This document shows, piece by piece, positions 7,937 through 8,521 of a DNA stretch of 64,000 nt. This DNA is from Gemmatimonadota bacterium (lineage in GTDB: Bacteria > Gemmatimonadota > Gemmatimonadetes > Palauibacterales > Palauibacteraceae), in NCBI GenBank assembly GCA_033720355.1, contig JAWWCR010000001.1, positions 10,364 through 74,363 on the forward strand, written 5' to 3'. Position 1 is the stretch's first letter; every line of letters starts with the position of its first letter. The notes under the pieces are model-generated. The model saw only the letters and a list, made by a program, of their open reading frames with translations. It was not told the origin of the DNA and did no database searches. The translations under genes and the position numbers were made by a program.

Positions 7937-8521
7937 CTACGGCTCTTCCGGCTCCGGAGTCACCTCGTCGATGACCGCCGCCAGCTCGTCGTACGCGGCC
8001 GGGTCGACCTGGTTGAACTGAGGCATCACGCCCGCGATCCGGCCATCCGGCCCGACCACCACTACCGAGCGCGCCCCGACCATCCCGCCGTCGCGGAGAG
8101 GGCCCCCGTAGGACGAGTACACCTCGCCGGAAGGGTCGCTCGCGAAGAGGTACTGGAAGTCCTCATCGGCGAGCCACGACCGTCCCTCCTCGATCGCGTC
8201 GTTCGAGATGGCGATGAGCACGACGTTCCTGCCGTCGTTGAATACGCTTGCGTACTGATCACGGTACGCTCTCATCTGAACCGTTCAGCCACGCGTCCTG
8301 ACTCTGAAGAAGAACGCGAGCACCACGGTCTCGCCGCGGTAGTCGCTCAACCGAACGGGCTCCTCGAGCAATCCGTAGCGCGTCGCGCCCGGCAGCTCGA
8401 AGTCGGGGGCCATCTCCCCGACGGCTAGCAAGTCCGGTCCTTCTTCCTGAGCCGCGGCCGGCGCCGCGGCTCCGAGGGCGATCGCCCCCGCCAGGACGCC
8501 GAATACTGCGAGTCGGCGCAT
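7937..8521 (-). CDS. Exported peroxiredoxin (BCP / AhpC-TSA family) with in-frame TGA at 8285-8287; probable selenocysteine-containing Prx
   Basis: Track ORFs 8285..8665 and 7937..8275 are on the same strand and in the same frame. Only the TGA plus 9 nt separates them. The joined product reads MRRLAVFGVLAGAIALGAAAPAAAQE...MAPDFELPG...YRGETVVLAFFFRVRTRG-U-TVQMRAYRDQYASVFNDGRNVVLIAISND.... The TGA aligns with the peroxidatic Cys of the TPGCTVQ..RD motif. Start is ATG 8519-8521, preceded by AGGA. Confidence 0.7.
8250..8269 (-). other. Candidate bacterial SECIS-like hairpin downstream of the in-frame UGA
   Basis: The mRNA reads UGA-ACGGUUCAGAUGAGA-GCGUAC-CGUGAUCA-GUACGC. This is a perfect 6-bp stem with an 8-nt G/U-containing loop, and the stem starts 16 nt after the UGA. 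Alternative pairings exist (CUGA/UCAG around the UGA, and UACG-CAAG-CGUA just after). Confidence 0.45.

Follow-up and report, generated by a model that had tools for sequence, protein, structure and literature searches.

Within a 64,000-nucleotide (64-kb) stretch of DNA from a Gemmatimonadota bacterium (contig JAWWCR010000001.1, positions 10,364 to 74,363; hereafter the window), two open reading frames (ORFs) on the minus strand together resemble one peroxiredoxin (Prx), and the TGA that separates them lies where the codon for the peroxidatic cysteine would be expected. The locus therefore raises the question of whether this TGA marks a broken gene, the junction of two separate polypeptides, or a codon that is read, and if so as which amino acid. 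The original prediction, made from the letters of the window, favoured selenocysteine (Sec). Having compared the gene with its relatives, we consider it very probable that the UGA encodes Sec and that the locus is a selenoprotein gene for an exported 1-Sec Prx of the BCP/PrxQ type. The gene and its parts are as follows.

8521..7937, minus strand: full coding sequence of the predicted selenoprotein, an exported 1-Sec BCP/PrxQ-type Prx (194 codons including U79, by translation)
8529..8534, minus strand: Shine-Dalgarno-like AAAGGA, 8 nt 5' of the ATG at 8521 (read from the sequence)
8450..8521, minus strand: predicted signal peptide of the Sec export type, MRRLAVFGVLAGAIALGAAAPAAA/QEE (basic residues, hydrophobic run and AxA-Q site)
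8306..8308, minus strand: codon F72, Phe/Tyr where PxxxTxxC has its canonical Pro (column counts in Sec and Cys forms)
8287..8285, minus strand: in-frame TGA, predicted Sec codon U79, at the peroxidatic-Cys column
8269..8250, minus strand: candidate bacterial Sec insertion sequence (SECIS) hairpin, GCGUAC[CGUGAUCA]GUACGC (comparative conservation and RNAalifold)
7937-7939, minus strand: true stop codon, TAG

Re-reading the sequence confirmed that ORFs 8285..8665(-) and 7937..8275(-) share strand and frame and that the gap between them consists of the TGA and ACG GTT CAG, after which an ATG follows. Read through from the ATG at 8521, the product is MRRLAVFGVLAGAIALGAAAPAAAQEE...FFFRVRTRG-[TGA]-TVQMRAYRDQY...; its N-terminus, MRRLAVFGVLAGAIALGAAAPAAA/QEE, is followed by MAPDFELPG and then by ...VVLAFFFRVRTRG-[TGA]-TVQMRAYRDQY.... 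As had been proposed, this is one BCP/AhpC-TSA protein of normal length with a putative export signal. Scored with Cys at the TGA, residues 34-163 match the Pfam AhpC-TSA domain (PF00578; 80 bits, cutoff 26; E 1.8e-22), and the match extends over both sides of the TGA. The original prediction had placed the TGA at the peroxidatic Cys by an alignment with Escherichia coli Bcp. That alignment is correct: the E. coli protein (NC_000913) aligns with FFFRVRTRG[U]TVQ so that the TGA falls at its peroxidatic Cys. The best sequence matches in the PDB were also BCP/PrxQ proteins, and HMMER alignments put the TGA column at their peroxidatic Cys, including that of the Sulfolobus tokodaii Prx 2ywn (FYPAAFTQVCTKEM). 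No curated NCBIfam model reached its cutoff on the window protein.

The same interruption accounts for how the family appears in public databases. A protein search returned many entries of 112-113 aa, 73-88% identical to the window protein and beginning exactly with MRAYRDQY, which carry titles such as 'redoxin domain-containing protein' or 'peroxiredoxin'. From their sequences, these are the C-terminal halves of orthologues split by gene callers; the original prediction had expected standard gene callers to miss such a gene or to call it a pseudogene.

Orthologous loci were collected by scanning one genome per GTDB species and taking the best 80 loci (L001-L080); a metagenome scan was added to these, giving 146 distinct TGA-containing sequences, and 12 distinct Cys-form DNAs were also obtained. 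TGA occupied the peroxidatic-Cys column in 80/80 of the best species-representative genome loci and in the whole set of 146 distinct sequences from genomes and metagenomes. The records of the 80 loci are nearly all titled Gemmatimonadota, Longimicrobiales, Gemmatimonadales or Ca. Palauibacter. Pairwise, the core amino-acid identity between Sec forms ranged from 44% to 100%, with a median nucleotide identity of 72%, and the presence of TGA at one and the same column is far beyond chance. An assembly error is excluded as its source, because 146 independent assemblies carry it. On either side of the TGA, conserved amino-acid columns display a synonymous variation of 0.5-2 bits among Sec forms. 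Since this is the normal variation of coding sequence, both halves are translated and under purifying selection.

UGA retains its usual function in these genes. Among 142 of them the true terminators were TAG (93), TGA (37) and TAA (12); because 37/142 end in TGA, UGA is an ordinary stop in these organisms, and a global reassignment of the codon (codes 4 or 25) was rejected. An ATG stands at codon +4 after the TGA in 142/146 Sec forms, and the other four have CTG or TTT there, so that in 4/146 the C-terminal half is without an independent start. When 1.35 Mb of locus sequence was scanned for other genes with a conserved in-frame TGA and a coding signature on both sides, none was found beyond the Prx family.

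The second line of evidence lies directly downstream of the TGA. A stem of 6 bp begins 15 nt after the UGA and encloses an 8-nt loop, CGUGAUCA, which begins at 21 nt. The stem is paired and invariant in 146/146 Sec forms, and the complete 20-nt core is identical in 136 of them, the ten variants differing in loop bases only. Synonymous entropy falls to approximately zero solely at codons +6..+11 after the TGA, where the usage is GCG 144/144, TAC 144/144, CGT 139/144, GAT 140/144, CAG 139/139 for Gln and TAC 144/144; CGT and GAT are otherwise minority, disfavoured codons in these genes. RNAalifold, applied to the 146 sequences from -30 to +75, returned the 6-bp hairpin as the sole conserved structure, and a longer SECIS stem was rejected on this result. 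Within the 64-kb window the hairpin occurs once. Judged by this pattern of codon use, the hairpin is under selection at the RNA level.

A 2026 review (PMC13188914) describes bacterial SECIS elements as having a loop of 3-9 nt, a stem of 4-16 bp, a G at the first or second loop position, a spacing of 16-37 nt and a minimum free energy (MFE) of at most -7.5 kcal/mol. With a loop of 8, a stem of 6 bp, G as the second loop base, the loop at 21 nt and an MFE of -9.2 kcal/mol for a 48-nt window, the conserved hairpin falls within this description, and the downstream structure that the original prediction had made a test of its claim was thus found. The codons flanking the UGA and those of the 15-nt spacer (8270-8293(-) in the window) lean towards A/T endings across the 146 loci, in genomes of approximately 70% GC. 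Examples are Gln+3 (CAA 89 vs CAG 57), codon +5 (AGA/CAT/ACA/GAA) and codon -2 (CGT/CCT); Cys forms have G/C endings at these positions. Such codons may keep the spacer unstructured.

The Cys side of the comparison comprised the 12 Cys-form DNAs and about 50 Cys proteins. Full-length Cys homologues from the database search were 47-66% identical to the window protein and carry the motif FFPAARTRGCTIQM. As a control for the hairpin, the AYRDQY peptide is spelled with CGG/CGC, GAC and TAT in Cys forms, and the stem is intact in 4/12 of them, as against all of the Sec forms. Cys and TGA therefore alternate at a column conserved on both sides, as would be expected if the original prediction were correct. 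One homologue connects the two groups: L163 (1246-1818, protein P0001) is the sole Cys form with the Sec-type FFF motif, and in it the 20-nt hairpin is unaltered and the spacer codons still end in A/T. Read most simply, its sequence suggests a very recent Sec-to-Cys change (TGA to TGC), and the retention of the hairpin by a Cys form indicates interconversion of Sec and Cys.

Several further members of the family deserve mention. Two sponge metagenome-assembled genomes (MAGs) titled 'Gammaproteobacteria bacterium' (L014 and L015) hold a Sec-Prx of 69% identity that has no tlpA/ccdA neighbours; they may be mislabelled bins or reflect gene transfer. A JGI protein, P0053, reads FFYQARTKGW-TIQM with Trp at the Sec column, which probably represents a TGA translated as Trp by the gene caller. 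In L017 (6569-7291) and L105 (about 3520-4182) a second TGA-containing Prx paralogue follows the first in tandem, and a TGA-containing paralogue was also noted at L048 around 3703. The paralogue has a lipoprotein-type signal (LAGAAC, LGAAAC, LALASC), an extra insert, DEDGTANIDM, and Gly in place of the catalytic Thr of TxxU (FFFRARG[SR]G-U-TVQM); its hairpin is the same as that of the main Prx.

To characterize the encoded protein we modelled the fold of a proxy, P0001, the closest Cys homologue, which has the same FFF motif and is about 64-66% identical to the window protein. The AF2 model had a predicted local distance difference test (pLDDT) score of 89.6, and its top Foldseek matches were BCP, Bcp4, BcpB and Bcp1, with target-normalised template modelling (TM) scores of 0.82-0.85. 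On this proxy, the window protein is predicted to adopt a Prx fold. The active-site Thr, the peroxidatic Cys/Sec column and the conserved Arg of Prx are all present in it: among the 146 Sec forms the T76 column holds T in 135, S in 7 and G in 4, and R151 is invariant in alignment A1. The active-site Pro is missing. Pro, Thr, Cys and Arg have been called 'absolutely conserved' in Prx (PMC3322552), and the Pro of PxxxTxxU is highly conserved in Sec-Prx (PMC13188914), but this column holds F in 127, Y in 19 and P in 0 of the Sec forms described here. Pro is found there in 11/12 Cys-form DNAs, the exception being the putative revertant L163, and in at least 90% of Cys proteins. The coupling of Sec to Phe/Tyr is no proof of a functional linkage, because a single ancestral event could explain it.

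The window protein contains no other Cys, and none occurs in the mature part of 127/130 complete Sec-form orthologues; by sequence the enzyme is of the 1-Sec kind, lacking a resolving Cys. It also appears to be exported. The window protein begins with an MRR n-region, followed by a hydrophobic run and AAA/Q, and a simple heuristic detected a signal-peptide-like N-terminus in 130/130 complete Sec-form orthologues.

Whether these organisms can decode Sec was approached through the dedicated machinery. In most bins of sponge symbionts the COGs of SelA and SelB are found together (Slaby et al. 2017, PMC5649159), and SelA, SelB and SelD are listed with one copy each in Gemmatimonadetes bin94 and bin43 (PMC5649159 Table S4). 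A TGA orthologue is present in bin94 itself, on contig MPNE01000007.1 (locus L030). SelB is treated as a signature of the Sec-decoding trait (PMC1273633). Literature searches returned no dedicated report linking Gemmatimonadota to selenoproteins, and two papers (PMC8318568 and PMC8938466) were uninformative on Gemmatimonadota.

A number of observations weigh against a Sec-decoding locus. Searches with E. coli SelA, SelB and SelD (tblastn) detected none of selA, selB or selD in the 64-kb window or the L001-L080 flanks, and ARAGORN found no tRNA-Sec in the same sequence. The absence of the sel genes from the window and flanks carries little information, since they can lie elsewhere in a genome than the genes they serve. 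The phylum-level evidence for the machinery is another group's published COG count table, taken as it stands. For the hairpin, the core alone has an MFE of -7.0 kcal/mol, which is borderline relative to -7.5, and the loop departs from the commonest G[G/U] sub-pattern with its closing N1-N2 pair. The 146 sequences display conservation and no compensatory covariation in the stem, because the stem never varies. A 66-nt fold was no more stable than shuffled sequence (z -0.35), and for this reason single-sequence thermodynamics is uninformative and the evidence for the element is comparative. No Rfam family matched the window at gathering thresholds, and around the TGA, at E values up to 10, there were two chance matches only, to a miRNA model and a snoRNA model. 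Finally, the envelope pathway proposed below has gene neighbourhood and analogy as its entire basis.

These points have to be set against what the alternatives would require. A Cys Prx could be inactivated by a TGC/TGT-to-TGA nonsense mutation in a single substitution, which was the caveat of the original prediction, and gene callers do split the gene, leaving many 112-113 aa 'C-terminal half' proteins in the databases. A pseudogene, however, would not be expected to carry its TGA in 146 distinct sequences from 80 species-level genomes and metagenomes, a distribution that rules against a recent inactivating mutation, nor to remain under purifying selection in both halves with a conserved signal peptide, nor to possess a 20-nt element invariant at synonymous sites. 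This explanation is effectively refuted, and we assign it practically no weight. A true split gene is also highly improbable. Translation would then stop at the UGA and restart at the ATG four codons on to yield two assembling polypeptides, with the hairpin serving termination-reinitiation. The frequency of that ATG (142/146) fits such a scheme, and in principle a hairpin so close to a stop and a start could influence their coupling. The same Met is nevertheless invariant in Cys homologues, where no restart is needed, and four Sec forms have replaced it by CTG or TTT. Because the signal peptide is on the N-terminal piece only, the two pieces would be sent to different compartments; moreover, the catalytic residue would be missing, and the homologues have Cys exactly at the stop column.

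We also regard it as very unlikely that the UGA is read as Cys, Trp or another standard amino acid, whether a near-cognate tRNA suppresses the stop or, under selenium shortage, SelB brings Cys-tRNA(Sec). The lack of sel genes and tRNA-Sec in the window and the scanned flanks would agree with it, as would the W of P0053, were that residue not probably a gene-caller artefact. Opposed to it is the conserved SECIS-like hairpin at canonical spacing, a hallmark of SelB-dependent decoding, together with the SelA, SelB and SelD reported in bin94, a MAG with an orthologue. If Cys were wanted, TGC would serve, as it does in L163, and UGA is an ordinary terminator in the same genes.

With Sec as the favoured reading of the UGA, the neighbouring genes become relevant to the function of the enzyme.

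5942..6742, plus strand: ccdA, membrane thiol-disulfide electron transporter of the DsbD_TM family (Pfam PF02683, E 1.2e-44)
6739..7296, plus strand: tlpA/resA-like exported thioredoxin with a WCEQC motif (Pfam Redoxin, AhpC-TSA and Thioredoxin; NCBIfam ResA/TlpA-like)
7307-7786, minus strand: PhnB-like gene between the Prx and tlpA-like genes (Pfam 3-dmu-9_3-mt, E 3e-39)

The Prx gene of the window is convergent with a two-gene ccdA-tlpA operon, in which the stop of ccdA overlaps the GTG start of the tlpA-like gene (GTGA, 6739-6742(+)); this overlap implies translational coupling of the two. Among the 95 Sec loci with more than 3 kb of downstream sequence, 79 have the tlpA-like gene and ccdA tail-to-tail and directly downstream of Prx, and the arrangement is also found beside several Cys forms. 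No homologue of the PhnB-like gene was detected within 3.5 kb in the 145 other Sec loci, and it is confined to the window lineage. By analogy, the conserved ccdA-tlpA neighbour suggests a selenoperoxidase pathway of the cell envelope. Beside the Cys form P0041 (L166-L168), the place of tlpA/ccdA is taken by SCO1/SenC and Caa3_CtaG, genes for cytochrome-oxidase assembly; the Prx family therefore seems to occupy two or more redox settings of the envelope.

Under the proposed mechanism, SelB carrying Sec-tRNA(Sec) would bind the hairpin on the translating mRNA and insert Sec at the UGA, and the pre-protein would leave the cytoplasm through the Sec export pathway. Once in the envelope, U79 would reduce peroxides through its selenolate and become a selenenic acid, with T76 and R151 assisting catalysis and F72 standing where Pro is usual. 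For the oxidized Prx the proposed direct reductant is the TlpA-like thioredoxin, acting through its CxxC, and CcdA, as the proposed electron source, would keep TlpA reduced with electrons from cytoplasmic thioredoxin. Such a CcdA-TlpA-Prx relay would parallel the characterised ScsB-TlpA-PprX relay of Caulobacter.

In Caulobacter crescentus the periplasmic BCP/PrxQ Prx PprX receives its electrons from ScsB through TlpA (Cho et al. 2012, PMC3322552). As is predicted for the window protein, it is an exported BCP/PrxQ-type enzyme with a cleavable signal sequence, and its reductant TlpA is kept reduced by a transporter of the DsbD family (PMC3322552); in the window and in the 79/95 related loci, a tlpA-like gene and ccdA lie beside Prx. 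The transporter differs, being ScsB for PprX and CcdA in the window. PprX has a Cys nucleophile, keeps Pro, Thr, Cys and Arg and possesses a resolving Cys, whereas the window Prx is predicted to have Sec, has Phe for Pro and lacks a resolving Cys. E. coli Bcp (thiol peroxidase, b2480) shares 29% identity with the window protein over 147 residues (E 6e-14); its Cys45 stands opposite the TGA, and TVQ follows in both proteins. Unlike the predicted exported window protein, Bcp resides in the cytoplasm, and its resolving Cys lies five residues on, where the window protein has Arg. Membership of the E. coli Bcp equivalog family (NCBIfam NF006960) was rejected at 44 bits against a cutoff of 140.

Prx-like selenoproteins are a known class, as the original prediction stated. 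The Sec-containing 'Prx (COG1225/Bcp, TxxU)' family of Kryukov, Zhang and Gladyshev (reference WP_011365628.1), for which 43 genes were counted in a Sargasso Sea survey, is long established. It has in common with the window protein, as predicted here, a BCP-type AhpC/TSA fold, a peroxidatic Sec in TxxU, widespread Cys homologues and a SECIS hairpin inside the coding sequence immediately downstream. By the review's description that family has PxxxTxxU, whereas Phe/Tyr stands for Pro in 146/146 sequences here; the signal peptide, the lack of a resolving Cys and the ccdA/tlpA neighbours likewise distinguish the window protein from the family as described. Sec is also used by PrxU of Eubacterium acidaminophilum, a cytoplasmic thiol peroxidase of the AhpC/TSA superfamily from an anaerobic Firmicute. 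The PrxU model (NCBIfam NF040737, peroxi_PrxU) has 233 positions and represents a different Prx subfamily; membership of the window protein was rejected at 39.1 bits against the curated cutoff of 270.

More is conceivable than a new member of the known family. The locus could represent a distinct, previously undescribed selenoperoxidase system, in which a 1-Sec PrxQ, exported and remodelled in its active site, is hard-wired to ccdA-tlpA, decoded through a minimal SECIS and distributed across the phylum. We put this forward tentatively, as a possibility somewhat short of even. In such a system the 'absolutely conserved' Pro may have become Phe/Tyr together with the change from Cys to Sec, with Thr also becoming Gly in the lipoprotein paralogue, and decoding may proceed by an unusually minimal, sequence-invariant SECIS. 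Cultured Gemmatimonadota are aerobes. If the system is indeed distinct, a Sec-Prx in the oxidising envelope of an aerobic phylum would run counter to the opinion that selenoproteins are seldom kept by aerobic bacteria (PMC13188914).

Current understanding is not overturned by these results, because Sec-Prx is already an established family. The kind of protein, a Sec-containing BCP-type Prx, is known, and what is unusual here is the active site and the gene context. An immediate consequence concerns annotation: in all 80 of the best species-representative loci the predicted selenoprotein is recorded publicly as fragments of 112-113 aa, and if the gene were called correctly, Gemmatimonadota would gain a selenoprotein and, by implication, the Sec-decoding trait. 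As a compact candidate SECIS, the invariant 20-nt hairpin could serve recoding studies. With Pro/Cys forms and Phe-Tyr/Sec forms in one family, together with one fresh Sec-to-Cys revertant, the family also offers a natural experiment. It would allow the choice of selenium over sulfur to be probed in a peroxidase of an oxidising compartment, and likewise the recycling of a selenenic acid by a CcdA-TlpA relay.

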